IMG/VR virus record: IMGVR_UViG_3300045988_141926
Span: 380-64,379 of that record
Source: a virus
DNA: 64,000 nt
Direction: 5' to 3' (one strand)
The translations under genes and the position numbers were made by a program. The notes beneath the pieces are model-generated. The model had not been told where the DNA came from and made no database searches. It saw only the letters and a list, made by a program, of their open reading frames with translations. This document shows positions 32,493-62,197 of this stretch, piece by piece. Within the stretch, counting starts at the first letter, position 1. Each line of letters begins with the position of its first letter.

Positions 32493-33557
32493 TTATAACT
32501 GTTTGCCCTTGTTTTTGGCATTGCGGCATTTTTTACAAATACTATAATAACCATCTTTACTAGTTTTATTTTTGCTAAAATATTTATTATGTGCTAATTT
32601 AATTTGCCCACAGCGACTACATTTTTTATATTTACCTTTTGCTTTATGTAAATAGTAATCATATAGGTATTGGTCTTCAGCCGCTGAAGCGATTAATTTA
32701 GGAATTTTATTGCGCCATAAACTAGAAATATATTCTAAACTATGGGTAATATTAAATTCCTCTTGGATTCTCTTTTGGATGTCTATATTCTATAATCCAT
32801 CAATTTTATATTCAACTATTCTGTCATATAGTGGATAATCTTTAAGAGCGATGGTACATAAATTATCAAAATCTTCCATAATATACCATAAATCTCTTTC
32901 AAAATCTCCCCAACTATCTTGTTTTAAACGAGAATAATTACATAAAATTGCAGAACATACTCTAGGATCTAATAGTGAAATGCCATCCGGGATTGGATAA
33001 CCATCATCATCAAAAATGCAAGTTGTGTCCTCTAATGGAATAAAATTTCTTGAACGAGTAATTTTAGTCATAATAATTGGACGACGAACCGCATTTTTAA
33101 TAACATACTAATCTTTACGCATTTCAATAATAGCACGTTTAATTATAAATGCTTCGCGTCCTTCACTAACTCGTAATTTGGCTTCCCAAGTAGTAATGGC
33201 GTCTCTCAACTATTTTAAATGAGGTATTTCTTCTATATCTTTTTTAGTAATTGTAATTTTAGGCTAAAATATTGTATTTTTATTTTCAGTAATTAAATTA
33301 TAAATTCCATCTTCGCCATTCTCAAATTGGGAAACAAGACCTTCAAAAGATGTTTCACGTTTATTAACTGTTGCCATACGATTATCAGTTAATAGTTTAC
33401 GCTCCTTCTTCTCTTGTTTCTCCATACAAAGAATGATATAGTCCCCTAATATTTCTAAATATCGAGGAGAGGGGTCTGGGGTTTCCTCTAATATTTTCTT
33501 GACTAATTCATTTCTTTCTTCTGGAGTTTGTAAGGAATAATCTAATTTTATCATCAT
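32493..33557 (-). CDS. First gene of the late operon (~354 aa), C-terminal Zn-ribbon
   Basis: ATG at 33557 with SD GGAGGT. C-terminal CSRCGQ...CKKC motif. The frame continues through TAGs at 33264 and 32790. Confidence 0.4.
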
Positions 33558-33725
33558 TACCTCCAGATTTTTTTACGTCTTCATTATACAAAAAATTTTT
33601 CCAGGTGTCAAATTTTAATAAATGCATTTAAAAAATTTTTAAACGATACTATTAATTGGAAAAAATTTGACAATAAAAAAAATTTTTTGTATTATTATTA
33701 TAATAAAAAATAAAAGGAGAAGTTT
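33558..33725. promoter_or_regulatory. Divergent promoter region between the late operon and the plus-strand block
   Basis: ORF-free and AT-rich. Contains TTGACA...TATAAT upstream of the 33726 gene. Confidence 0.45.
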
Positions 33726-38744: not shown

Positions 38745-38940
38745 TCATTTTGCCTATTGACATTCTGCCCCATTTGTGTTATACTCGGTCGCGCGTCCAC
38801 GGCCCTGATGCGCGGAAATTCCATTATACCACAGCCCAGCCAATTTGTCAAGCATTTTGTGTTCGGTATTTTCAACAATTTTTTATCCCGAAATTTGTGC
38901 AATTTGACGGTTGACAACGCCCAGTAGGTGTGCTATACTT
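38745..38940. promoter_or_regulatory. Convergent-promoter palindromic module, copy 1
   Basis: Rightward TTGACA-17-TATACT. GC hairpin. Leftward TTGACA-17-TATAAT on the minus strand (plus-strand attata-N17-tgtcaa). Third rightward promoter TTGACA-17-TATACT. Confidence 0.6.
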
Positions 38941-43469: not shown

Positions 43470-43690
43470 TTTTACCTATTGACAAACGCCCCTATTTGTG
43501 CTATACTCAGCCGAGCGCCCACGGTCCTGGCGCTCGAAATTTCCATTATACACCCTGCCAGCAATTTTGTCAATAGGTAAATTGAACAAATTTGACCAAA
43601 CACACATCCCGAAAGTTTGTGCAAAATAACCAACGAAAATTTGACAATTCTAAAAATTTTTTGTATAATAATGTCAATGACATAGATGGG
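43470..43690. promoter_or_regulatory. Convergent-promoter palindromic module, copy 3
   Basis: Same architecture with an 8-bp GC stem. Confidence 0.6.
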
Positions 43691-46689: not shown

Positions 46690-46885
46690 CATTTTTACCT
46701 ATTGACAAATGCGCCTGGGTGTGGTATAATGGCCGGCCGATTTCGCGCGTCTCGGCCGGAATTCACCATTATACACCCCGTCAGCAATTTTGTCAAGAGT
46801 TTTTTTACACAAATTTTTTTATTTATTTTTCCCGAAACTTGTGCAGTCTGACTATTGCAATCTGCGCTCACCTATGGTACAATAC
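46690..46885. promoter_or_regulatory. Convergent-promoter palindromic module, copy 4
   Basis: TTGACA-17-TATAAT, GC hairpin with an 8-bp stem, leftward attata-N17-tgtcaa, third promoter. Confidence 0.6.
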
Positions 46886-48317: not shown

Positions 48318-48520
48318 ATTTTGACTATTGACAAATCCGGGCGCGCGTGGTATAATTCGGTCGCGCGTCCACGTATGTGGCGCTCGAAATTTCTATTATA
48401 CACCCCACTGGCAATTTTGTCAAGCGTTTTTTTGCACAAATTTCAAAGATTGAAAATCCCGTTTTTTGTAGGTATTGCCTATTGTAATTCTCCTGTAATG
48501 TGTTATAATGATGATACTGA
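48318..48520. promoter_or_regulatory. Convergent-promoter palindromic module, copy 5
   Basis: Same architecture. Third promoter TTGTAA-16-TATAAT. Confidence 0.6.
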
Positions 48521-49617: not shown

Positions 49618-49810
49618 GTATTTTGCCTATTGACAAATGCGCTCAAATGTGGTATAATGGGTCGGGCGCTCACGAACGTGGCGCCCGAAATTTCCATTAT
49701 ACCACGCGGCACAAATTTTGTCAAGTGTTTTTTTGCACAAATTTTAGATGTTGAAAATCCCATTTTTTGTGAGTATTGACTATTGTAATTTGCCCAAGGG
49801 TGTGGTAATA
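49618..49810. promoter_or_regulatory. Convergent-promoter palindromic module, copy 6 (canonical)
   Basis: Perfect consensus on both strands: 12-bp arms gtggtataatgg/ccattataccac and hairpin cgggcgc-N11-gcgcccg. Third promoter TTGACT-18-TGgTAATAT. Confidence 0.65.
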
Positions 49811-51289: not shown

Positions 51290-51440
51290 TGACTATTGAC
51301 AACGCCCTCTGACTGTGGTATAATGGGTCGGGCGCTCACGGATGTGGCGCCCGGCATTTTTGTCAATACACATTTTCAACAATTTTTCCGGCGAAAGTTT
51401 GTATAAATTGACTATTGCATTTTGTCCCGAAATGCGCTAT
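51290..51440. promoter_or_regulatory. Degenerate copy of the convergent-promoter module (copy 7)
   Basis: TTGACA-17-TATAAT and a hairpin. The 3' arm is deleted. Confidence 0.45.
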
Positions 51441-51491
51441 ACTATAAACAATCTGAGGGAGCTGGAACCCACCAACAGCACGGAGGCATCT

Positions 51492-52100
51492 ATGAATAAG
51501 AGCCAGTTTTTTGACCACGAAATCGAGTTCATTCAGTCCGAGGATTTGCGCTCATTCGTGCGCTATTACTTCGATTGTATCGTTCCCGACTATTTCTGGA
51601 CTATCGGCGCGAGTTCTTCCGGCAAGTTCCATCCGGCTATGAGCCAAGGCGAGGGCGGTTTGGTACGCCACACTAAGGCGGTTGCGTGGTTTTGTGAGGA
51701 ATTGCTCCGCATGAGCCAGTGGGCGTATCTCACTGACGAGCGCAAGGACTACGCAAGAGTTGCCTGTCTGCTCCACGATACAGCCAAGTATGGTTTACAC
51801 GAGTTCGACAAGGAGTTGTACCCCAAGCACGGGGAAATGGCGGCTGACCAAGTACGCCGTTCGTGGCTGGTCTTTTTCGAGAGCGACTGCCCCTATGAGT
51901 TGACGCAAGCCATCAAGTCCCACATGGGTCAATGGACTACCGACAAGGCGAACAGACCTTTCACTCCTATTGATAGGTTGGTACACATGGCTGACTATGT
52001 GGCAAGCCGAGCGTTTATCGACATTCCGGCAATCAACGCTGACTATAACGACAAGGCGGAGTTAAACCAGATTGTGCCTGACCTGCCGTGGGAAGATTAA
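51492..52100 (+). CDS. HD-domain phosphohydrolase, 203 aa
   Basis: H...HD...D motifs. Confidence 0.55.
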   Translation: MNKSQFFDHEIEFIQSEDLRSFVRYYFDCIVPDYFWTIGASSSGKFHPAMSQGEGGLVRHTKAVAWFCEELLRMSQWAYLTDERKDYARVACLLHDTAKYGLHEFDKELYPKHGEMAADQVRRSWLVFFESDCPYELTQAIKSHMGQWTTDKANRPFTPIDRLVHMADYVASRAFIDIPAINADYNDKAELNQIVPDLPWED

Positions 52101-52134: not shown

Positions 52135-52440
52135 TGTTCATTTTACCTATTGACAAATTGGGCCAGGTGTGGTATACTAAAAGGGGAGGTACAACGGGCC
52201 GAGCGCGGGCGCTGCGGTCCGAATTCCCGATCTGTACCCCCATATGGAAAATTTTCCGTAATTCTAGCGGCCTTCATATGCGCCCATATTTTCCCAAAAC
52301 CCGAGGCACCGCTCGGTACCCATATGCCGCCCGGTTTGACATAAAAAAAAATTTATGTTATAATGATAAAAAAAACCATTTTTTTTCTCACTTGACTTTT
52401 AAAAAAATTTTTTGTATAATATGTATATACAAAATGAAAA
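52135..52440. promoter_or_regulatory. Divergent copy of the convergent-promoter module (copy 8) with a 3x CATATG repeat, followed by two AT-rich promoters
   Basis: TTGACA-17-TATACT, then a GC-rich insert in place of the palindrome, then AT-rich promoters before the 52453 gene. Confidence 0.4.
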
Positions 52441-52452
52441 GAGGTTATTTTA

Positions 52453-52827
52453 ATGAATAAGAACGATATTCTGACGCGCTTAATGAATGGCGAGAGCGCT
52501 GAGGATATTGCTAAGGAAATGACTGCAATGCTGAATGACGCCACTAAGGCATATGCTGACCAGAAGAAGGACAAGGAAAAGATGGCCCGAGCGGAAGCGG
52601 TTGCCGATGCTATCAACGACTATGCGGCCTATATTGGCTACAAGGGTGCAGAGTTGAAGGGCGAGGACGTCATTAAGATGATGGACAGTTTCTTGAAGTT
52701 CTATAAAGACCTTCACAATTTCAAGATTGAGATTCCCGGTTTCCGTTTTGAGACGAGAACTGATAAGCCCACCAAGAAGGGCAAAACCGTAGATGAAATC
52801 CTCAACGACTGGATTTCTCGCATTTAA
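52453..52827 (+). CDS. Hypothetical protein, 124 aa
   Basis: SD AAGAGG. A long hairpin terminator lies at 52838-52900. Confidence 0.55.
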   Translation: MNKNDILTRLMNGESAEDIAKEMTAMLNDATKAYADQKKDKEKMARAEAVADAINDYAAYIGYKGAELKGEDVIKMMDSFLKFYKDLHNFKIEIPGFRFETRTDKPTKKGKTVDEILNDWISRI

Positions 52828-53214: not shown

Positions 53215-53250
53215 ATGGAGTGGTTTATCGCCACTCCATTTTTTTTATTC
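53215..53250. terminator. Bidirectional terminator
   Basis: aaaaaaaaatggagtggtttatcgccactccatttttttt. Confidence 0.5.
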
Positions 53251-53628
53251 CTTAAACATCAAATCACTTAAAATGTCATTATATGCTGATTCCAGGAGAG
53301 AATCAACGAGAGTTGAATCAACATTAAGGTTAATATCATTCTTGCCACTCTCATCACCCTCAGGACACACTAGTAGCCTGCCCACCGGCGAGGTTCGCTC
53401 TTGCTTTTTCCAAGGTGATTCCCATTTACGATTTAAACTACCATCTTCACTGATATTCGCAATCCAATAGCCATCAACAATGAGAGCATTATTACAATCA
53501 TACAAGACATAAACATTATCGCCCAAATCATCATACTTAGAGCGCACAATCACATCTCTACCTTTATAATTGCCAACTCTCTTACCATATTTATTTTTTA
53601 ATACATCATAACTGAATTCATTTTTCAT
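53245..53628 (-). CDS. Hypothetical protein, 127 aa
   Basis: ORF ending in TAA. Confidence 0.45.
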   Translation of the reverse strand: MKNEFSYDVLKNKYGKRVGNYKGRDVIVRSKYDDLGDNVYVLYDCNNALIVDGYWIANISEDGSLNRKWESPWKKQERTSPVGRLLVCPEGDESGKNDINLNVDSTLVDSLLESAYNDILSDLMFKE

Positions 53629-54286: not shown

Positions 54287-54465
54287 TTTTATTTCTCCTT
54301 TTGTTCTTTATTTTTGTTCTCGTCTCTACGATTTTTACATCGGGAAAATTCCCAATGGGATTAAATAAGCCGGCGTCAGCCGGATTATTTAAGCCCACCC
54401 TCTATTGCCACAAACCTATTTCAACCCTCTATTACTATTTAATAGGTTTCTAAAAATTGACCACT

Positions 54466-54550
54466 TTTATAGAAAATTTTGACCACTTTATCTAACACCA
54501 TCAGAAAATTTTGACCACTTTTATCAGAAAATTTTGACCACTTTATTTAG
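54466..54550. repeat. Iteron array: 4x AAAATTTTGACCACTTT(T)AT
   Basis: Direct repeats with about 20-bp periodicity. Confidence 0.7.
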
Positions 54551-54797
54551 GGAGTTCGTTCTTCACCCACAAAAATTCAAGACACGTCTTATTATCTTCT
54601 AATATTTTTAATCTATAATCTAATAATCCTAAACGTTTAAGAATATCAATAGTATCATCAATTATAGCATTATTAGATGTAGTAGTTGTAGCAATACCAA
54701 TATATTCTTTAATCTATCTAAATGTAGCGATAAATGGCTAAAAACTACTAGTATAGTATTTATTAAACAAATAAATATATATATTTATACTATTCTT

Positions 54798-55172
54798 CTA
54801 AAATACATTCATCATTTTTAATAATGTATTATATTCAATTAAATTAGCTTCTGACCCATCTAATACTGTTAAATAATAATATTCATCGCCTTCATCACTA
54901 ACAAGATTTGAATCAATTAAATAAGAAAAATATTTCGCAATAGTTTTACGAGACATAGCTTTTTCAATAGTTCCATCACTTAATTCACGAGTAAAATCAC
55001 GCTCAATACTAGCCCATTTAACTTTCTTTTTCTCTATTCTACGGCGTGAAGTATTTACATTTTCTCGTTCAGAATTACATTGAAGCCAGGCATATAATAA
55101 ATCGCAATAATCCTTTTCTCGCACAATAGATGTAGTTGATGGCATTTGACGAGAGTTCTTTTTAATAACCAT
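54798..55172 (-). CDS. Small basic protein (~124 aa) flanked by iterons; candidate replication initiator or regulator
   Basis: SD GGAGG. Iteron arrays lie on both sides. Confidence 0.45.
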   Translation of the reverse strand: MVIKKNSRQMPSTTSIVREKDYCDLLYAWLQCNSERENVNTSRRRIEKKKVKWASIERDFTRELSDGTIEKAMSRKTIAKYFSYLIDSNLVSDEGDEYYYLTVLDGSEANLIEYNTLLKMMNVF

Positions 55173-55235
55173 AAATACCAACCTCCTTCCATAGAACAAT
55201 AAAAATTACGCCTTTTCTATTGAATGGTCCTGACC

Positions 55236-55385
55236 AGAATTTTTTAACCACTTTTATAGAAAATTTTGACCATTTTTATAGAAAAAATTACTCTTTTTTA
55301 TAGAAAATTTTGACCACTTTTATAGAAATTTTTGGACACTTTTATAGAAAATTTTGACCACTTTTATATCAAATGACCATTTTTG
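55236..55385. repeat. Iteron array: about 6x TTTTGACCACTTTTATAGAAAA
   Basis: Same unit as 54466-54550, with about 22-bp periodicity. Confidence 0.7.
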
Positions 55386-55467
55386 TCCGACACGGTAAGA
55401 CGCGGAAACGAAATTTCGTTTATCTCAACATTTTTATTCTAAATTTCGCTAACCGCTCTTTAATTGA

Positions 55468-55510
55468 TTTTTAATAAAAATTTTTATATAATATATATAT
55501 AAACAATAAG
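55468..55510 (+). promoter_or_regulatory. Class-II AT-rich conserved promoter, copy 1
   Basis: ttttaataaaaatttttatataatatatatataaacaataag. Confidence 0.45.
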
Positions 55511-55558
55511 AAATGAATTAACAACAGTTCAACTACAACTAATCAGGAGGTAATAAAT

Positions 55559-56014
55559 ATGGATGCTGGCTTTTATCGTTTCGACGTTCATTTCTTCGAT
55601 GGCGCTGAACAGAATGCCCACGGTTTCGTATATGCGAAGAATTACGCGAATGCCGTTGAGAAGGTTTGTGATATGGTTGATGATGAAGACATCGCGGATA
55701 TCAAGATTGAAGGTATGGAGCCCAGTGAAGTCCTCCTGATGCCCGACTGGATTGCCGACAAAATTACCAAGTATGACTACTTTTCCAGCGACTACGCGCG
55801 CGAGGACAAAAATGTTCAATTTAAGAATGTTAATTCTGTGCTGTCCGCAGAAAAGACTGATGAAGTTATGAAGGAGATTGAGAAGCATCTGACCAGTGGC
55901 AACTATGGCCCCTCCGACAAACTCCCTCTGTCTCAGCAGTCTATCGAATATATCAATGAGTGCGTGGCAAATGGTCTCCCTATCCAGATGCCAGACCATC
56001 GTGGTGAAATCTAA
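55559..56014 (+). CDS. Hypothetical protein, 151 aa
   Basis: SD AGGAGG. Confidence 0.55.
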   Translation: MDAGFYRFDVHFFDGAEQNAHGFVYAKNYANAVEKVCDMVDDEDIADIKIEGMEPSEVLLMPDWIADKITKYDYFSSDYAREDKNVQFKNVNSVLSAEKTDEVMKEIEKHLTSGNYGPSDKLPLSQQSIEYINECVANGLPIQMPDHRGEI

Positions 56015-56466
56015 TGTGGCAACGAATCTGTAAAGAGTGCGCCTATTTCGATGATATGCGCTGTAAGATTAGCGGACAACCCGCTATCTCTCACAATATC
56101 GCTTGCGCCTCATTTAGTAGCCAACGCTACGAGTGCGATATTTGCCACCGTCAAATTCACCATACTGAGGTAATCTATGATAGCAAAAGTAATAAGATTG
56201 TTTGTTCAGATTGCTGTAATCGTTTGTCTACGTGTGATAATTGCCATAATGGGAATATCTGCCTTTTTGAAACAGACCCATCACCACTTCCGAAACAAAT
56301 ACAAAAACAAATCCGTCAGGGAAATATGTTCGGACAAACAATCATAAAAAATCCCGAGAGGGTTCGACAGATTTGCGAAGTCAAATGTTCTTGTTGGGAC
56401 AAAGAAAACCAACAATGTTTAAAAACTACTTCCCATTATTGTCCCAACATTCAGGAGGTTATATGA
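56014..56466 (+). CDS. Cys-rich metal-binding protein, 150 aa
   Basis: More than 20 Cys residues in CxxC pairs. Confidence 0.5.
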   Translation: MWQRICKECAYFDDMRCKISGQPAISHNIACASFSSQRYECDICHRQIHHTEVIYDSKSNKIVCSDCCNRLSTCDNCHNGNICLFETDPSPLPKQIQKQIRQGNMFGQTIIKNPERVRQICEVKCSCWDKENQQCLKTTSHYCPNIQEVI

Positions 56467-56708
56467 TATTTACAGTAATGCATAACGGCTCTCCTTACTT
56501 CACCGTCGAGGCCAGTGAAATCATTGGTATTGCCAAAGTCTATAATGGCGAGGTAAATTTCAGCACAGTAATGCTTCTCAAAAATGGCGGTTCCTATAAA
56601 TTTCCTTTTCCCACAAAAGATGAACAACTCAACAAGATTCGCCAGAATTGGCTTCTTGCTCGGACTAAAACAAATTTTCCTACGCCTGATGTAATCATTG
56701 ATGTGTGA
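56463..56708 (+). CDS. Hypothetical protein, 81 aa
   Basis: SD GGAGG. ATGA overlap. Confidence 0.5.
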   Translation: MIFTVMHNGSPYFTVEASEIIGIAKVYNGEVNFSTVMLLKNGGSYKFPFPTKDEQLNKIRQNWLLARTKTNFPTPDVIIDV

Positions 56709-56758
56709 GCACGTTGGGCAAAACTATTAAATTTAACAAAACTGACCAGGAGGAGCGT

Positions 56759-56956
56759 ATGAAACGTAAGGGCTACGACATCTACATCGGCAAACGTGGA
56801 GCGATTTATTACCTCGAAACTATCGAGGAAACTAATCCTCTCGTCGCAGATACCTATGCCTATGATAAGGCACTCGACAAGTTTGGCGATATTCCAGAAG
56901 TAGTATGGAAAGCAATCCCGGCAGTAATTTGGATACCGGAGGATGGAAGAGAATGA
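56759..56956 (+). CDS. Hypothetical protein, 65 aa
   Basis: SD AGGAGG. Confidence 0.5.
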   Translation: MKRKGYDIYIGKRGAIYYLETIEETNPLVADTYAYDKALDKFGDIPEVVWKAIPAVIWIPEDGRE

Positions 56957-57171
56957 CACTATTTAAAATTAACCTTGAAGACTGTGGCTGTTTCTGTATT
57001 GACCTTGATACCATTAGTTCATTCTATATCGGCTTCGGCAATAAACTGAAAATTCTCCCTATCGGAGGGTCTGACTACATTGCCCCTATTACGATTTGCC
57101 CGCAGGATGCTAAACGTCTTGTTGAAGCCTGGGAAAATAGACAGGAGCGCATTAACAATGGAACTCTATAA
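56953..57171 (+). CDS. Hypothetical protein, 72 aa
   Basis: ATGA overlap. Confidence 0.45.
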   Translation: MTLFKINLEDCGCFCIDLDTISSFYIGFGNKLKILPIGGSDYIAPITICPQDAKRLVEAWENRQERINNGTL

Positions 57172-57532
57172 TCTCTATTCATATATTGAAGTGGTCGATG
57201 ACCCTGATACATTTGTATATTTATGGTCGGCTCACTACGACAATGCCGAAGCCGCCCAATCAGATGCTTGGAACGAGACTTGTCTCCGTTATGAAGAGAA
57301 TGCCAAAGAATTCCAGTTGCCTGACTACGATGAAATGATTGAGCGACTCCAAGAGTTCGAGCGGTCAAGAGGTAGGCCAGATACAATAGATAAGAAAATG
57401 ATGGACCACGCAATTGAGTTAGCCATTGAAGCGCGTGATGATTGCATTGATTATTACGTAGTACCCGCTCGACTTGATGAACGAGATTACGAAGACCTCG
57501 TAGTAATAGATGCTGATGAATATAATCTATAA
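57158..57532 (+). CDS. Acidic hypothetical protein, 124 aa
   Basis: ORF. Confidence 0.5.
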   Translation: MELYNLYSYIEVVDDPDTFVYLWSAHYDNAEAAQSDAWNETCLRYEENAKEFQLPDYDEMIERLQEFERSRGRPDTIDKKMMDHAIELAIEARDDCIDYYVVPARLDERDYEDLVVIDADEYNL

Positions 57533-57620
57533 TTAAATTTGCCACGATTTTCACCACCTTATATTTCTATTATCATTATACCAAATAATTTTGGAAAAAT
57601 CAATACAAGGAGAATTGAAA

Positions 57621-57902
57621 ATGGCTGTTAAAATCCGCAAAGCGTTTACCATTATGCCCGATTCCCTCAATGATGACCAGCGCTATATTTTCCACGGCAT
57701 CGACCGCGCAGAAGCCGAAGAGATTTGTCTCGCATTTGTCGAGGAGCTCTTGGATGATGATATCCAGATGTGCCAGCGCGCTGAACACTATCCTGAGATT
57801 ACGTGGTGCCCTGATTGGTGGAAGGATGTTGAGCCTGACCTTCGTCTCTGTGAATACGATTCATTCGTATACGAAACCTCAATTTACGATTTTGGACACT
57901 AA
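57621..57902 (+). CDS. Hypothetical protein, 93 aa
   Basis: SD AAGGAG. Terminator at 57905-57940. Confidence 0.5.
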   Translation: MAVKIRKAFTIMPDSLNDDQRYIFHGIDRAEAEEICLAFVEELLDDDIQMCQRAEHYPEITWCPDWWKDVEPDLRLCEYDSFVYETSIYDFGH

Positions 57903-57943
57903 TATATAAGAGTATTTGGCGATGCCAAATACTCTTATTTGAT

Positions 57944-57979
57944 TTTTTTATAAATTTATAATATAATATATATATAAGA
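57944..57979 (+). promoter_or_regulatory. Class-II AT-rich conserved promoter, copy 2
   Basis: tttttttataaatttataatataatatatatataag. Confidence 0.45.
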
Positions 57980-58001
57980 TGAAGAAAGGAAATGATACAA
58001 A

Positions 58002-58244
58002 ATGAATGATATTGTAATGCGTTTCAGAACTGAGCACGGCCAGACTATTGAGATGACTATGAATGACCTCAAAGATGCATACGACGAGTATCGTTTCCTG
58101 ACTAAGCGTGAATATATTCTTGAAAACTATCCTGAGTCCGAGGCTTGCGTGGACAGAATCGCCGCTCGTGCCATCGAACTCGAAGACAGTTATCATTATC
58201 GGGAAGACGACGCAATCGAACAGGCGTTCGATGAGATTATGTGA
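58002..58244 (+). CDS. Hypothetical protein, 80 aa
   Basis: ORF. Confidence 0.5.
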   Translation: MNDIVMRFRTEHGQTIEMTMNDLKDAYDEYRFLTKREYILENYPESEACVDRIAARAIELEDSYHYREDDAIEQAFDEIM

Positions 58245-58256
58245 GGAGGATGCGCT

Positions 58257-58487
58257 ATGAAGTGGCATTTGTTTTCTGAGAAGCGGCCTGAGATTGGCAC
58301 TGATGTTCTCATCTGTTTCGAGCCGGGCAATCCTTTTGCCTGTGATGTGTGTAGCCTCGAAGAGGAAGGCGAAGGCCACTATGTTTGGTGGCGCCTTGAA
58401 AAAAGTTATCCCGTTGATGATACTGATTATTGGGCTGAGATTCCGATGCCTCAGCTGAGAATTCCCGCATATAAGGAGGAGGATTAA
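58257..58487 (+). CDS. DUF551-like phage protein, 76 aa
   Basis: KWH...W...IPMP pattern. Confidence 0.35.
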   Translation: MKWHLFSEKRPEIGTDVLICFEPGNPFACDVCSLEEEGEGHYVWWRLEKSYPVDDTDYWAEIPMPQLRIPAYKEED

Positions 58488-58489
58488 CT

Positions 58490-59233
58490 ATGATTGAAGG
58501 TCTCTACCCGCCGTTCCAGCACTGGGGCGCGTCCGGTACCACGTGGATTCTGAGCGATACACATTTTAATGACCCTGACCTCATTCACGCCTATGTTGAC
58601 CGCCCCTCCGCAGAAGAGCAGGTGAAGCGCATCAATGCTAAGTGCGGTCGTGCGGATACGCTGATTATCCTCGGCGATGTTGGCGATATCTCCTATGTGC
58701 GTCAGTTGCGCGCCAAGTATAAGATTCTCGTGATGGGCAACCACGACTCTGGCGCATCCAACTATCAGCGTCAGATTTTCAGACAGAAGTTTGATAAAGG
58801 CCTGTTCCAGAAGCACGAGGCATTGGACGAGATGAAGCGTCTCTATCCTGATTGCGCTTATTCTATCACTGATAGTTATGATTATCTCGATAATTTTCCC
58901 TGTTGGGAGGTTCGCGCTGATAATAAACTTTTCGACCAGGTGTTCTCTGGTGTTGTAGTTATTGGAGAGAAATTGATGCTCTCTCACGAGCCTATTAAGG
59001 GATGCGATTGGTGTATGAATATCCACGGCCACGATCATTCTCGCTCTCATAAAAATGATAAATATCATTTCAACGTGTGCGCTGATGTGATTGGCTACGA
59101 GCCCATCAACTTCAATAAGTGGATGAAGGAAGGCCATCTCGCGCCCATCGTATCCATTCACCGCGACACCATTGACAACGCAACGGCTCGCGCACGCAAA
59201 CGAGGGTATAGATTGGGGAGGAAACCCCAGTGA
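58490..59233 (+). CDS. Calcineurin-like metallophosphoesterase (Ser/Thr phosphatase type), 247 aa
   Basis: SDTHF, GDVGD, GNHD, GHDH. Confidence 0.7.
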   Translation: MIEGLYPPFQHWGASGTTWILSDTHFNDPDLIHAYVDRPSAEEQVKRINAKCGRADTLIILGDVGDISYVRQLRAKYKILVMGNHDSGASNYQRQIFRQKFDKGLFQKHEALDEMKRLYPDCAYSITDSYDYLDNFPCWEVRADNKLFDQVFSGVVVIGEKLMLSHEPIKGCDWCMNIHGHDHSRSHKNDKYHFNVCADVIGYEPINFNKWMKEGHLAPIVSIHRDTIDNATARARKRGYRLGRKPQ

Positions 59234-59402
59234 TACTACGCCTTATTCTCCTTATGGTTCTTGGAGGCTCTATTTGTATAGGGATTGAGACAATGTGGCG
59301 CGCGTTTAAAAATGGGAAATGGCCTCTTGGAATAGTAGTAATTTTTGAGGTTATAGGATTTATTCTTATGACTATATTCTTTGTGAAGGAACAGGTGCTA
59401 TA
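59220..59402 (+). CDS. Small membrane protein (~60 aa, GTG start)
   Basis: Hydrophobic. Confidence 0.3.
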
Positions 59403-59579
59403 ATGATTTTTAATATTTTGAACCAACTTCTTCTGTTTATCTTCGGTCTTCTGTTGTTCGCTATTATGCTGAATAATATCGAAGAGCCTTATTTCCATAG
59501 TAAATGGGGCATCATTCTTCCGTTCGTTGGCGCTCTCGCTTGCGCGGCCTGTGTCATTTACAATTTGTTTCAGGGGTGA
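59403..59579 (+). CDS. Small membrane protein, 58 aa
   Basis: Hydrophobic. Confidence 0.35.
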   Translation: MIFNILNQLLLFIFGLLLFAIMLNNIEEPYFHSKWGIILPFVGALACAACVIYNLFQG

Positions 59580-59584
59580 TTACT

Positions 59585-59779
59585 ATGTCTGTTTTTAGCG
59601 TTATTACATTTATTGTTTGTATAATTCTGATTTTTACTTATATGTATCAATCTTATCATATCGTTAAATATTACCGTGAGCAGGGTAGATGGGGCGTTTG
59701 GGCGATTTTGAACATTTTATCTATCCTAATTATCGTGGAGGCCACTGAAATTATGGCGGAGGTAGTACATCTATGCTGA
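59585..59779 (+). CDS. Small membrane protein, 64 aa
   Basis: Hydrophobic. Confidence 0.4.
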   Translation: MSVFSVITFIVCIILIFTYMYQSYHIVKYYREQGRWGVWAILNILSILIIVEATEIMAEVVHLC

Positions 59780-60177
59780 TTACTATTTTGTTTGTAATTG
59801 TATTTATCCTCAGCGCATCTCTATGCTACAAATTCCGCAATCACGATGTTTCTATGGTTCTTCTTTTGCTTGCGGTTATCTGTGCGGTCGGTCTTATTGT
59901 GTGCGGGGCTATGTGTGCCTGTACGCCATATGACTCTGACCTCCGCACCCAAGACGCAATGGATAAGGAGCGTATGCTTCTTGAATTGCGTATTGATGAT
60001 GACTACTGGCGCAAAGACGCACGCCTGACCGCAGAACTTGTCCACGATGTAGACGAATACAATGAATTGGTTATCTCGATGCGCAAGACCTATAACAGTG
60101 AATGGACTTCTTGGTTTGGTCGCTCTTGGATGGCTGACCTAACTACCGTAGAATTTCCAGAAGGAGGATGGAAATGA
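59773..60177 (+). CDS. Membrane-anchored protein, 134 aa (paralog A)
   Basis: Transmembrane region plus a soluble domain. Confidence 0.5.
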   Translation: MLITILFVIVFILSASLCYKFRNHDVSMVLLLLAVICAVGLIVCGAMCACTPYDSDLRTQDAMDKERMLLELRIDDDYWRKDARLTAELVHDVDEYNELVISMRKTYNSEWTSWFGRSWMADLTTVEFPEGGWK

Positions 60178-60566
60178 TTCTCTTACTGATACCTTTTGTA
60201 GTAATGATAATTTGTATCATTCTATCTTGTAAGATTCAAGATGTTGATACAAATGAATGTATCTGTGTTGTTGGAGGAGTTGCTCTTTGTATTGTTCTTG
60301 CGTTAGGCTTTGTCTGTTTCCTTATGCGCGTTTGCGATTATGACAAGTTTGAGATTGATGCGGAACGCGCAAATATTGTTCGATATATTGAACGGTATGG
60401 CGATGACGCAGAGACTAATGAAGCTACCTACAACACTATTTATAACAAGGTTTACAATTTTAATTATCGAGTATATAGATGTCAGAGAACTCGGTCAAAT
60501 CCTTTCATTAGCTGGTTCAAAGCCGGATGGTGGATGGAGATTGAGCCGATAGATTGGGCGCCATAA
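60168..60566 (+). CDS. Membrane-anchored protein, 132 aa (tandem paralog B)
   Basis: Same architecture as the 59773 product. Confidence 0.5.
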   Translation: MEMILLLIPFVVMIICIILSCKIQDVDTNECICVVGGVALCIVLALGFVCFLMRVCDYDKFEIDAERANIVRYIERYGDDAETNEATYNTIYNKVYNFNYRVYRCQRTRSNPFISWFKAGWWMEIEPIDWAP

Positions 60567-60577
60567 GGAGGTATAAT

Positions 60578-60862
60578 ATGGATTCTTTGTTTGATTTGAT
60601 GTTCGGCATTATGAATAATGATTATTCTAAGGCTGACAAGGCTGGCCACGACACTGTTGGCGACTACACCATCGACACTTGCGACACCGTGGACCAGGGC
60701 TATGAGACCGCTATGTGGAAGGGCGATGGCGATATTATCATCGTTGAGCGCTACCCCGATAAGGAGCGCGCTGAGGCTGGCCACACGAAGTGGTGTGAGT
60801 TCGCTAAGACGAACCCTGAGCACGTGTATAGTGTTCAGATGGATGAGCACGTCAATTTCTAA
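60578..60862 (+). CDS. Hypothetical protein, 94 aa
   Basis: SD GGAGGT. Terminator at 60870-60912. Confidence 0.5.
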   Translation: MDSLFDLMFGIMNNDYSKADKAGHDTVGDYTIDTCDTVDQGYETAMWKGDGDIIIVERYPDKERAEAGHTKWCEFAKTNPEHVYSVQMDEHVNF

Positions 60863-60910
60863 ATAACTAAGTCAATGGAGGGTTTTACCAAACGTAAAAT
60901 CCTCCATTGA

Positions 60911-60947
60911 TTTTTTTTAAAATTTATTATATAATATATATATAAGG
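60911..60947 (+). promoter_or_regulatory. Class-II AT-rich conserved promoter, copy 3
   Basis: ttttttttaaaatttattatataatatatatataagg. Confidence 0.45.
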
Positions 60948-60962
60948 TAAAAGAGAAAGGAA

Positions 60963-61652
60963 TTGATGTTTATGATGATTTTTCCCACCTTACATATTGA
61001 GTTTGAAAAGTGGAAATTTAATAAGGAGTATGGAGTTTGGGTTTCTAACTTCGGCAACTTCAAGGACATTCATAAGCGTCCTATTCCTAAGAAAATCTTC
61101 CAGCAAAATGGTTATGTGTCTGTGAAAACCAAGCACGGCAATCGTATGGCGCATCGCTTGGTTATGTATACGTGGTGCCCCATTGAAGACCGCGAGGCGT
61201 TCACTGTTGACCACATTGACCACAATAAACGTAATAACCGCGTTGACAATCTGGAATGGGTCAGCCAGGCTGAGAATCTGATTCGAGCCCAGGATGACAT
61301 TGTGGTGAGTGCTGTTCCTACTATTAATAATGCGGGCGCCGAACCCGCCGGTCGGGACACTGGGAAAATTCTGGAAGAGTGCGACAATACTCTGGCCAAG
61401 TGGCTTGCCACTACCACGGACACCACTTGCCGTTCCTTTATCGTTCAGGAGGGTATCACTCTTGATACTGTTTTTACCAACACTGATGGTTTTAAGGGTA
61501 CGGCGATGGAGGCTATTGACTGGCTCCAAAAGCATAACTCTAAGGTCAGCACTACCGAAGAGAAGTTCTTCTTCAAACTGTGCAATAGCATCCGTATGGA
61601 CGGTTTTATGTATTCTCGTAAGTGGAATTTTTTGAGAGGAGTTAAACAATGA
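60963..61652 (+). CDS. HNH homing endonuclease with a NUMOD4-like N-terminus, 229 aa
   Basis: WVSNFGNF, HRLVMYTW, VDHIDHNKRNNRVDNLEWVSQAEN. Confidence 0.7.
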   Translation: MMFMMIFPTLHIEFEKWKFNKEYGVWVSNFGNFKDIHKRPIPKKIFQQNGYVSVKTKHGNRMAHRLVMYTWCPIEDREAFTVDHIDHNKRNNRVDNLEWVSQAENLIRAQDDIVVSAVPTINNAGAEPAGRDTGKILEECDNTLAKWLATTTDTTCRSFIVQEGITLDTVFTNTDGFKGTAMEAIDWLQKHNSKVSTTEEKFFFKLCNSIRMDGFMYSRKWNFLRGVKQ

Positions 61653-61945
61653 GAGTAGCAATTTATGCGACTGAACCTTATTATGGTGGGCTCCACGGAT
61701 ATTTCAACTGCGGTATCTACCACATTGATATGTTTAGTGAGGCTGATGAAATTGGTCATTATCTGTGTGATGAACTGATTGATAGTTATACTACACTGAC
61801 CGATCTCTACGAAGATGGCGAACGTGAGTATGATTACGCAATCTATGAAATCCCTAATGCGTTCGATGATATCGACGATGACCAGCTCGACGCCGACCTC
61901 TATGACTACGGTTTGAGCGGTTTTATCAAGAAATATTCTCTCTAA
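61649..61945 (+). CDS. Acidic hypothetical protein, 98 aa
   Basis: ATGA overlap. Confidence 0.5.
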   Translation: MRVAIYATEPYYGGLHGYFNCGIYHIDMFSEADEIGHYLCDELIDSYTTLTDLYEDGEREYDYAIYEIPNAFDDIDDDQLDADLYDYGLSGFIKKYSL

Positions 61946-61948
61946 TTG

Positions 61949-61985
61949 ATTTTTTTAAAAATTTATAATATAATATATATATAAG
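61949..61985 (+). promoter_or_regulatory. Class-II AT-rich conserved promoter, copy 4
   Basis: tttttttaaaaatttataatataatatatatataag. Confidence 0.45.
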
Positions 61986-62008: not shown

Positions 62009-62197
62009 ATGTATCGTACTGTTGAAATTTGGGATGACGATGATGTCGTTGAGACTGATTTTGATACCTATAATCAGGCATTTGCCCTGTATGCGCATCG
62101 GTTCTCCTATGGTACTCTTCCTTTTGTTGATTTTCTCATTGTGGATATGAGCACTGGCGAAGTGGTGCTTCAAGCATCGACTGCTAAAATGGTTTAA
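62009..62197 (+). CDS. Hypothetical protein, 62 aa
   Basis: ORF. Confidence 0.5.
   Translation: MYRTVEIWDDDDVVETDFDTYNQAFALYAHRFSYGTLPFVDFLIVDMSTGEVVLQASTAKMV

Follow-up and report, generated by a model that had tools for sequence, protein, structure and literature searches.

The analysed window, a stretch of 64,000 nt from the viral record IMGVR_UViG_3300045988_141926 (positions 380–64,379), contains in its right-hand part four near-identical AT-rich elements, all of which are located on the plus strand and begin at the hexamer TTGATT. Each copy is intergenic, has the same orientation as the gene that follows, and precedes a gene led by a Shine-Dalgarno (SD) sequence, as had been stated in an earlier sequence-only reading of the stretch; SD and ATG are situated 28–66 nt past the −10 hexamer. 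Behind the copies, most genes are small standard-code ORFans, the exceptions being those for a metallophosphoesterase and an HNH endonuclease, and 10 open reading frames (ORFs) downstream of the elements had no match in PHROGs. This arrangement and the tRNA genes that come next after the element in related phages make it almost certain that the copies are promoters. In sequence they form a class distinct from the TTGACA promoters of the same window, as the earlier reading had proposed. The four copies are listed here with their sequences from the true left edge and with predicted transcription starts.

55464–55503, plus strand: copy 1, TTGATTTTTAATAAAAATTTTTATATAATATATATATAAA; −35 hexamer TTGATT at 55464–55469, 17-bp all-A/T spacer, −10 hexamer TATAAT at 55487–55492, ATATATA discriminator; predicted start at about 55499, leader of about 60 nt with the SD AGGAGG, ATG at 55559.
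57939–57978, plus strand: copy 2, TTGATTTTTTTATAAATTTATAATATAATATATATATAAG; −35 at 57939–57944, −10 at 57962–57967, ATATATA discriminator; predicted start at about 57974, SD GAAAGGAAA, ATG at 58002.
60907–60946, plus strand: copy 3, TTGATTTTTTTTAAAATTTATTATATAATATATATATAAG; −35 at 60907–60912, −10 at 60930–60935; predicted start at about 60942, SD GAAAGGAA, HNH endonuclease gene starting with ATG at 60966 or TTG at 60963.
61946–61985, plus strand: copy 4, TTGATTTTTTTAAAAATTTATAATATAATATATATATAAG; −35 at 61946–61951, −10 at 61969–61974; predicted start at about 61981, SD AAGGAAGGGG, ATG at 62009.

Across all four copies 32 of 40 positions are invariant, and across copies 2–4 this number rises to 37 of 40. 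A search with the 40-mer that tolerated up to 3 mismatches recovered the copies at 57939, 60907, and 61946 against an expectation of 0 (100 shuffles), and the 16-mer TATAATATATATATAA is present without any mismatch at all four sites (55487, 57962, 60930, and 61969). Each copy has a single G within its first 39 nt, whereas the surrounding region has a G + C content of 42%; the elements are thus AT islands that cannot be explained by local composition. The sequence-only reading had recognized the four conserved copies, but the left edge of the element lies 3–5 nt further upstream than proposed there. Since the earlier consensus began after the leading TTGA, the host-type −35 hexamer had been missed.

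An independent consensus scan identified TTGATT-N17-TATAAT at all four copies, which is the geometry of sigma70/sigmaA promoters. The −35 hexamer matches TTGACA at four of six positions with TTGA being invariant, and the −10 hexamer is a full match (6/6) in every copy. The 17-bp spacer is composed exclusively of A and T in the order T-run, A-run, and T-run, and the ATATATA discriminator is invariant in 4/4 copies. From 5′ to 3′, the complete unit would comprise the −35 TTGATT, the A/T spacer, the −10 TATAAT, ATATATA, a transcription start at the A about 7 nt past the −10 hexamer, a short leader with a strong SD, and the start codon. Among pairs of TTGAYN and TATAAT, a 17-bp spacer separates the hexamers of 34 of the 37 found in the window, 749 of the 801 in the loci of related phages, and 30 of the 33 in the published phage phAss-1. 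This spacing also holds where the spacer sequence varies, indicating that the whole phage group uses sigma70 geometry. Judged by these features, the copies are probably strong promoters of the host sigmaA/sigma70 holoenzyme that would need neither a phage polymerase nor a phage sigma factor, and their timing class would be early or middle. The earlier reading had instead taken the high degree of conservation as typical of promoters that depend on a sigma factor or a single-subunit RNA polymerase (RNAP) encoded by the phage. This argument is not supported: the copies carry the host-consensus arrangement TTGATT-N17-TATAAT, and both the early promoters of phage T5 and the promoter-early stem-loop (PeSL) cassettes of T4-type phages are conserved beyond their hexamers and yet host-read, so that high conservation is no sign of a phage polymerase.

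The window is part of the genome of an uncultivated gut phage with TAG recoding (code 15-like). On the minus strand between 1 and 34 kb, long ORFs exist solely if TAG is read as a sense codon, whereas the standard code yields products of 380 amino acids at most. This late operon (5490–33557, minus strand) is tightly packed and encodes 18 ORFs, including products of 2757, 963, 577 (TerL), and 553 (portal) amino acids. The recoded late ORFs contain up to 56 in-frame TAGs, and their products include terminase, portal, and virion proteins. From its first gene the operon runs leftward (33557 down to 5490) and is divergent from the standard-code rightward region at 34–64 kb, in which 1 of 52 genes ends in TAG. 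No copy of the element is located inside the recoded late structural operon, and an inspection by eye of the gaps in this operon for a distinct late-promoter motif revealed nothing convincing. A middle or late class had been suggested for the element by the earlier reading. The late assignment is probably wrong in view of the lack of copies in the structural operon and of the suppressor tRNA genes behind the element in relatives, because suppressor tRNAs are needed before the recoded genes can be translated; a middle class is still compatible with these observations.

The closest sequences to the window come from two IMG/VR contigs, IMGVR_UViG_3300045988_160359 and _140174, each about 197 kb long and 85–92% identical over 54–64 kb. 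In GenBank phages, a megablast search with 52–64 kb and a tblastn search with the phosphoesterase found no match. Further copies of the element occur in the ~197-kb relatives every 1–3 kb for at least 12 kb past the position of the window end, where they also reach larger genes. In total, the pattern TTGATTTTT-N14-TATAATATATATATAA was detected in more than 114 stretches of IMG/VR viral contigs of 45–200 kb. The consensus of 111 unique sites, TTGATTTTTT-taAAAAAaTAT(G)a-TATAAT-ATATATATAAagTAAAgaAAgg, extends over positions left free by the search, and 339 other TTGANN-N17-TATAAT sites in the same loci, which lie outside the pattern selection, have the same extended profile. An extended −10 motif, TG at −15/−14, is present in 53% of these 339 unselected sites and in 44–53% of related sites overall. 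Such TG/TRTG extensions are typical of sigmaA promoters in Gram-positive bacteria. The four window copies have AA or TA at −15/−14 and thus lack TG.

Many relatives carry tRNA genes 5–150 nt downstream of the element, and in three cases no other promoter lies closer upstream of a suppressor tRNA(CUA) gene than the element does (at distances of 74, 219, and 239 nt). In several relatives the tRNA 5′ ends lie only 5–21 nt past the −10 hexamer, which fits with a transcription start about 7 nt downstream of TATAAT. Genes for metallophosphoesterases (MNKTYAVSDIHG...) were also found repeatedly directly behind the cassette in relatives; the window itself encodes a calcineurin-like metallophosphoesterase (58490–59233) and an HD-domain protein (PHROG 5889; 51342–52100) in its rightward region. 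When contigs of bacterial genomes were scanned for host promoters of the same type, only contigs of metagenome-assembled genomes (MAGs) and no isolate genome were retrieved. The pattern is present in 50 stretches of MAG contigs (L118–L167), which are mostly labelled Clostridia or Lachnospiraceae. Several of the motif-bearing MAG contigs, with a size of 160–200 kb, carry the label Mollicutes, Clostridia, Melainabacteria, Endomicrobiaceae, Bacteroides, or Prevotella. The motif-bearing contigs are probably phage genomes that were mis-binned into bacterial MAGs.

Proteins similar to the structural proteins of the window are encoded by Enterococcus phage EF1, by Lactococcus 949-like phages, and by the gut phage phAss-1, for which a complete TAG-recoded genome has been published (OQ749652; PMC10607447). 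Between the window and phAss-1, the structural proteins share approximately 40–50% amino acid identity. The phAss-1 genome contains about 24 homologous cassettes of about 50 bp, TTGACA-tAAAAAAATTTTTaTGn-TATAAT-ATATATAGAAAaTGAGaAAGG, within 55869–125809 (minus strand; L115–L117). They precede genes for nucleotide metabolism, replication, and tRNAs and are all found on the strand of these genes; the structural module contains none of them. The cassettes include the nearest upstream promoters of the tRNA arrays and of one suppressor tRNA. The window has in common with phAss-1 and related gut phages of the ‘code 15 clade’ a homologous architecture with a −35 hexamer, an A7T5 spacer, (TG)nTATAAT, ATATATA, and a purine-rich leader with an SD. 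The differences are that phAss-1 has TTGACA or TTGACT, an AnTn spacer, and a TG extended −10 in nearly all cassettes, whereas the window copies have TTGATT, a TnAnTn spacer, and no TG. The overall layout is shared as well: in both genomes the late operon is divergent from a region with TTGACA/GC-spacer promoters, which is followed by the cassette region. In phAss-1, this TTGACA/GC-spacer cluster is located at 127–131 kb, and the proteins encoded there are homologous to those at 44–48 kb of the window. A cassette common to phages with merely 35–50% protein identity must be under selection and is not the result of recent local duplication. A literature search for the motif string returned nothing relevant; the kind of element is known, but as a family these cassettes are new, with no description in the literature searched.

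Several points weigh against a reading by the host holoenzyme without phage polymerase or sigma factor. The −35 hexamer is only a four-of-six match to TTGACA, and the window copies have no TG extended −10; TATAAT-like hexamers are partly expected in an (AT)n-rich element by composition alone; and the spacer and the discriminator are conserved more strongly than sigmaA needs, so that an additional phage factor may recognize the element. The evidence from tRNA and suppressor tRNA genes comes from relatives and not from this genome (ARAGORN found no tRNA within the window), and the Clostridia are predicted as hosts solely by analogy with phAss-1. Moreover, the 64 kb covered are part of a genome of about 197 kb, and a phage RNAP may be encoded elsewhere in it. 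Within the window, the search for a phage RNAP or sigma factor gene that the earlier reading had recommended produced one candidate, the gene at 32493–33557 (minus strand), whose product matches the PHROG 5767 ‘sigma factor’ (E 1e-53) and belongs to a very large family (6919 matches).

It is nevertheless very improbable that a phage sigma factor or RNAP reads the elements and that their likeness to the host consensus is a coincidence or mimicry. Besides the PHROG match, this explanation is favored by the great uniformity of the element, which is like that of phage-polymerase promoters. However, the product of 32493–33557 has no Pfam sigma domain and no PDB sequence match, its fold matches are weak, and the published analysis of the complete phAss-1 genome reports neither an RNAP nor a sigma factor (PMC10607447). 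A ‘Q-dependent antitermination protein’ is listed among the recoded genes of phAss-1 in the same paper. The candidate gene is the first of the late operon, follows a sigmaA-type promoter at 33611 (minus strand), and contains four in-frame TAGs. Its translation would thus depend on suppressor tRNAs that are driven by the element in relatives, which would result in a circular dependency. Together with the host consensus hexamers at the optimal 17-bp spacing, this circularity renders it less likely that the elements are read by a phage sigma factor or RNAP. Known promoters of phage sigma factors and single-subunit RNAPs (SPO1 gp28, T4 gp55, T7) differ from the host consensus.

The cassettes are not the only sigmaA-type promoters in the window. 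About 19 plus-strand sites between 37344 and 51296 have the form TTGACA-N14-TGnTATAAT with GC-rich and variable spacers and discriminators, and these sites presumably are the first promoter class of the earlier reading. The cassette class differs from them in the last two bases of the −35 hexamer, the all-A/T spacer, the lack of TG, and the invariant ATATATA. Spacers with A-runs and T-runs also occur in the promoters at 33611 (minus strand), 17467 (minus strand), 43641, 52336, and 52392. The last two are tandem hybrids that bridge both classes. The earlier reading had recommended a search of the full genome for more copies of the motif; within the window these hybrids and a diverged fifth copy were found, and close relatives contain further copies. 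Another cassette-like promoter with a TG extended −10 is intergenic and oriented antisense toward the gene 57158–57532, and it may be a source of antisense RNA or have arisen by chance. Between 37900 and 51330, perfect TTGACA-N14-TGnTATAAT promoters are arranged in face-to-face convergent pairs that enclose a GC-rich hairpin, with only about 37 bp between the two promoters. Each pair forms an imperfect palindrome with a length of about 95 bp and a DNA fold of −31 kcal/mol (z −7.25), and at least five such units are present in 13 kb; a trap for RNAP, bidirectional control, and short antisense RNAs are possible functions.

53758–53720, minus strand: diverged fifth copy, TTGATT-TATATATAAAATTATTA-TATAAT-ATTTATATAT, preceding the minus-strand gene 53245–53628.
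52336–52420, plus strand: two tandem hybrid promoters (starting at 52336 and 52392) with A/T-tract spacer and TG extended −10, TTGACATAAAAAAAAATTTATGTTATAAT and TTGACTTTTAAAAAAATTTTTTGTATAAT-ATGTATATA, ahead of the gene 52453–52827.
57603–57575, minus strand: cassette-like promoter, TTGATTTTTCCAAAATTATTTGGTATAAT.
49630–49724, 48328–48423, 46702–46796, about 43480–43573, and about 38760–38851: convergent-pair units of the first promoter class.

Another possible reading is that the cassettes, although of sigmaA type, additionally require a phage factor, or are under the control of one, that reads positions outside the hexamers, which would make them a delayed-early or middle class. The recognized region would be TTGATTTTT, the A/T-tract spacer, or ATATATA, and a sigma appropriator similar to MotA/AsiA, an RNAP-binding protein similar to T5 gpT5.026, a repressor, or an activator could act as the factor. 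Such a switch is considered unlikely, even though spacer and discriminator are conserved across distant phages beyond the needs of sigmaA and the TTGACA class is located by the divergence point (37–52 kb in the window, 127–131 kb in phAss-1) with the cassette class further along the direction of transcription. A precedent is provided by T5, in which the discriminator is the main distinction between early and late sigma70 promoters and is the site of action of a phage RNAP-binding protein (PMC7472727). Conversely, no candidate factor was found, hexamers and spacing are sufficient for unaided sigmaA, and about half of the sites in relatives have the full TGnTATAAT, which usually is factor-independent. 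There is also no obvious dyad or direct-repeat operator except for the T5A5 tract. For the preferred reading, in which the host holoenzyme alone suffices for recognition, the class-specific discriminator and spacer would tune strength and timing (early or middle), and, in line with a proposal for the early promoters of T5, a phage protein that binds RNAP could mediate this tuning.

The sequence-only reading had also stated that each copy follows a terminator. This is the case for copies 2 and 3, which are preceded by a strong hairpin and a T-run.

57906–57938, plus strand: intrinsic terminator with a 15-bp stem (−19.7 kcal/mol, z −6.7); its T-run is the TTGATTTTTTT of copy 2.
60869–60913, plus strand: intrinsic terminator with a 20-bp stem (−27.1 kcal/mol, z −7.9); its 3′ arm overlaps the TTGATT of copy 3.

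The claim failed for the other two copies: the fold upstream of copy 1 (55464) is weak and unlike a terminator (z −2.4), and copy 4 has no hairpin upstream (z −1.2) but adjoins the TAA stop codon of the ORF 61649–61945. In relatives a hairpin adjoins the element at 39% of the sites compared to 21% of control windows, as determined with a lenient criterion. Where a hairpin is present, TTGATTTTTTT would serve both as U-tract of the upstream terminator and as −35 hexamer plus spacer of the next promoter, and this double function would be one cause of the strong conservation, in addition to the class-specific discriminator. The resulting compact cassette of terminator, promoter, and ribosome-binding site (RBS) would divide the long rightward array of ORFans into operons of 1–3 kb.

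The edges of the cassettes coincide with breaks in synteny. Homology between the window and contig 160359 (L020) starts exactly at 55460, the upstream edge of copy 1. An 80-bp cassette consisting of the copy 2 element, the leader, and the first codons is 97.5% identical in L041/L182 with unrelated flanks, and orthologous elements have 0–1 differences per 42 nt in flanks that are 85–92% identical. The shared sequence of about 40–80 bp may act as a homology patch for the modular shuffling of genes, and such recombination would be a further cause of the conservation. It is extremely unlikely, however, that the elements are mainly sequences for recombination or mobility, such as HNH-associated cassette ends or target duplications, or an AT-rich site of the unwinding type, with hexamers that are incidental. 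The breakpoints at the element edges would agree with this idea, as would the location of copies 3 and 4 on both sides of the HNH endonuclease gene and one further ORF (60966–61945) and an array of 22-bp iterons that ends about 75 bp before copy 1. On the other hand, the element and the gene that follows always point in the same direction, hundreds of sites have a short and fixed spacing between the element and the SD and start codon or the tRNA 5′ end, and most copies in relatives are not located beside an endonuclease gene. A role in recombination would moreover be compatible with, and secondary to, a promoter function, as in PeSLs.

Two of the features mentioned deserve a closer description. 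The HNH endonuclease gene (60966–61652) and the adjoining ORF of 98 amino acids are bracketed by copies 3 and 4 (60907–61985), and this module looks like a promoter-flanked mobile or exchangeable unit. The iterons (AGAAAATTTTGACCACTTTTAT, period 22) form two arrays of about 4 and 7 copies, respectively (54448–54550 and 55214–55390), which flank a minus-strand gene at 54798–55199 (133 amino acids, no family match). In the closest relative the iteron module (54302–55460) is replaced by another sequence, and similar repeats occur in the MAG contig L150; the module may function as an origin, in partitioning, or as an array of operators for a regulator. With respect to base composition the window is heterogeneous, with a G + C content of 24–34% in the recoded late region (one 2-kb window has 40%) and 43–50% in the early region of the TTGACA promoters. 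A search of the whole window with Rfam detected no family, and no significant structure (z −0.59) was found at 52185–52335, where a non-coding RNA could be located behind a promoter at 52150.

The element itself is an ordinary, strong phage promoter with host consensus, and its value lies in the context. The signature TTGATTTTT-N14-TATAATATATATATAA offers a simple and searchable marker of transcription units in uncultivated gut phages of 45–200 kb, many of them TAG-recoding, which are hard to annotate. The suppressor tRNA genes behind this class in relatives suggest a way in which the timing of transcription could be coupled with stop codon recoding. Promoters and such a coupling were not addressed in the recoding literature searched, namely the phAss-1 paper (PMC10607447) and a preprint on stop codon recoding. 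A speculative and rather improbable model would connect these observations: a phage factor that recognizes the invariant T/A-tract spacer and the ATATATA discriminator would redirect the host sigmaA RNAP from immediate-early TTGACA/GC-spacer promoters to the cassettes, thereby timing the suppressor tRNA and the recoded late proteins, and the cassettes would also be PeSL-like joints. If this were true, a temporal switch similar to that of MotA/AsiA or T5 would be common to a large clade of uncultivated Clostridia phages that are abundant and recode TAG. As markers of the joints at which ORFan modules are exchanged, the cassettes would carry the PeSL idea over from the T4-type phages, which have Gram-negative hosts, to phages of Firmicutes.

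Known phage systems provide parallels for most of these traits. The host-takeover module of SPO1 contains, as do other Firmicute phages, clustered strong early promoters with sigmaA consensus, each followed by few small genes with a strong RBS, and this resembles the arrangement in the window. Later in SPO1, gp28 and gp33/34 take over, which are phage sigma factors with consensus sequences unrelated to that of the host; a distinct second consensus of this kind was not found here. In phage T5, the spacer region of the early promoter PN25 contains GAAAATTTTTCTGTATAAT, and the T5 early promoters share with the element a spacer of A-runs and T-runs. These promoters (e.g., PN25, P25, and P26) are also alike in being used by the host RNAP and in having near-consensus hexamers at 17 bp and homology beyond the hexamers. 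The host sigma70 RNAP reads all three temporal classes of T5, the main difference between early and late promoters resides in the discriminator, which is ATATT in all known early ones, and a phage RNAP-binding protein affects the discriminator contacts (PMC7472727). Both T5 and the phage analysed here thus possess several promoter classes of the sigma70 type within one genome, and both have a class-specific AT-rich discriminator, namely ATATT in T5 early promoters and ATATATA in the cassettes, whereas that of the TTGACA class is variable. The two phages are unrelated, their hosts probably belong to different phyla, and the −35 hexamer is TTGCTT or TTGACA in T5 as opposed to TTGATT. A homolog of gpT5.026 was not found here, although no search was aimed at one.

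The breakpoints in synteny at the element edges give rise to a resemblance to the PeSL cassettes of the T4-type phages RB49/phi1, PST, and nt-1 (PMC2839356, PMC4122927). In a PeSL, the stop codon of the preceding gene is combined with a stem-loop that acts as terminator, an early promoter of the sigma70-like type, and an SD with its start codon; the window copies are composite units of a comparable kind, although the stem-loop is present at only two of them. As with PeSLs, the surroundings are rich in ORFans, and the copies coincide with replacement or indel breakpoints between close relatives. However, the PeSL stem-loop is rich in G/C and usually located between or over the −35 and −10 hexamers, whereas the hairpin described here, which is present in two of the four window copies and about 39% of the relatives’ sites, is placed upstream, with a T-run that is also part of the −35 region. 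Because of this different placement and the lack of sequence homology to T4-type PeSLs, the element is to be regarded as an analogue of the PeSL cassettes rather than as one of their members.

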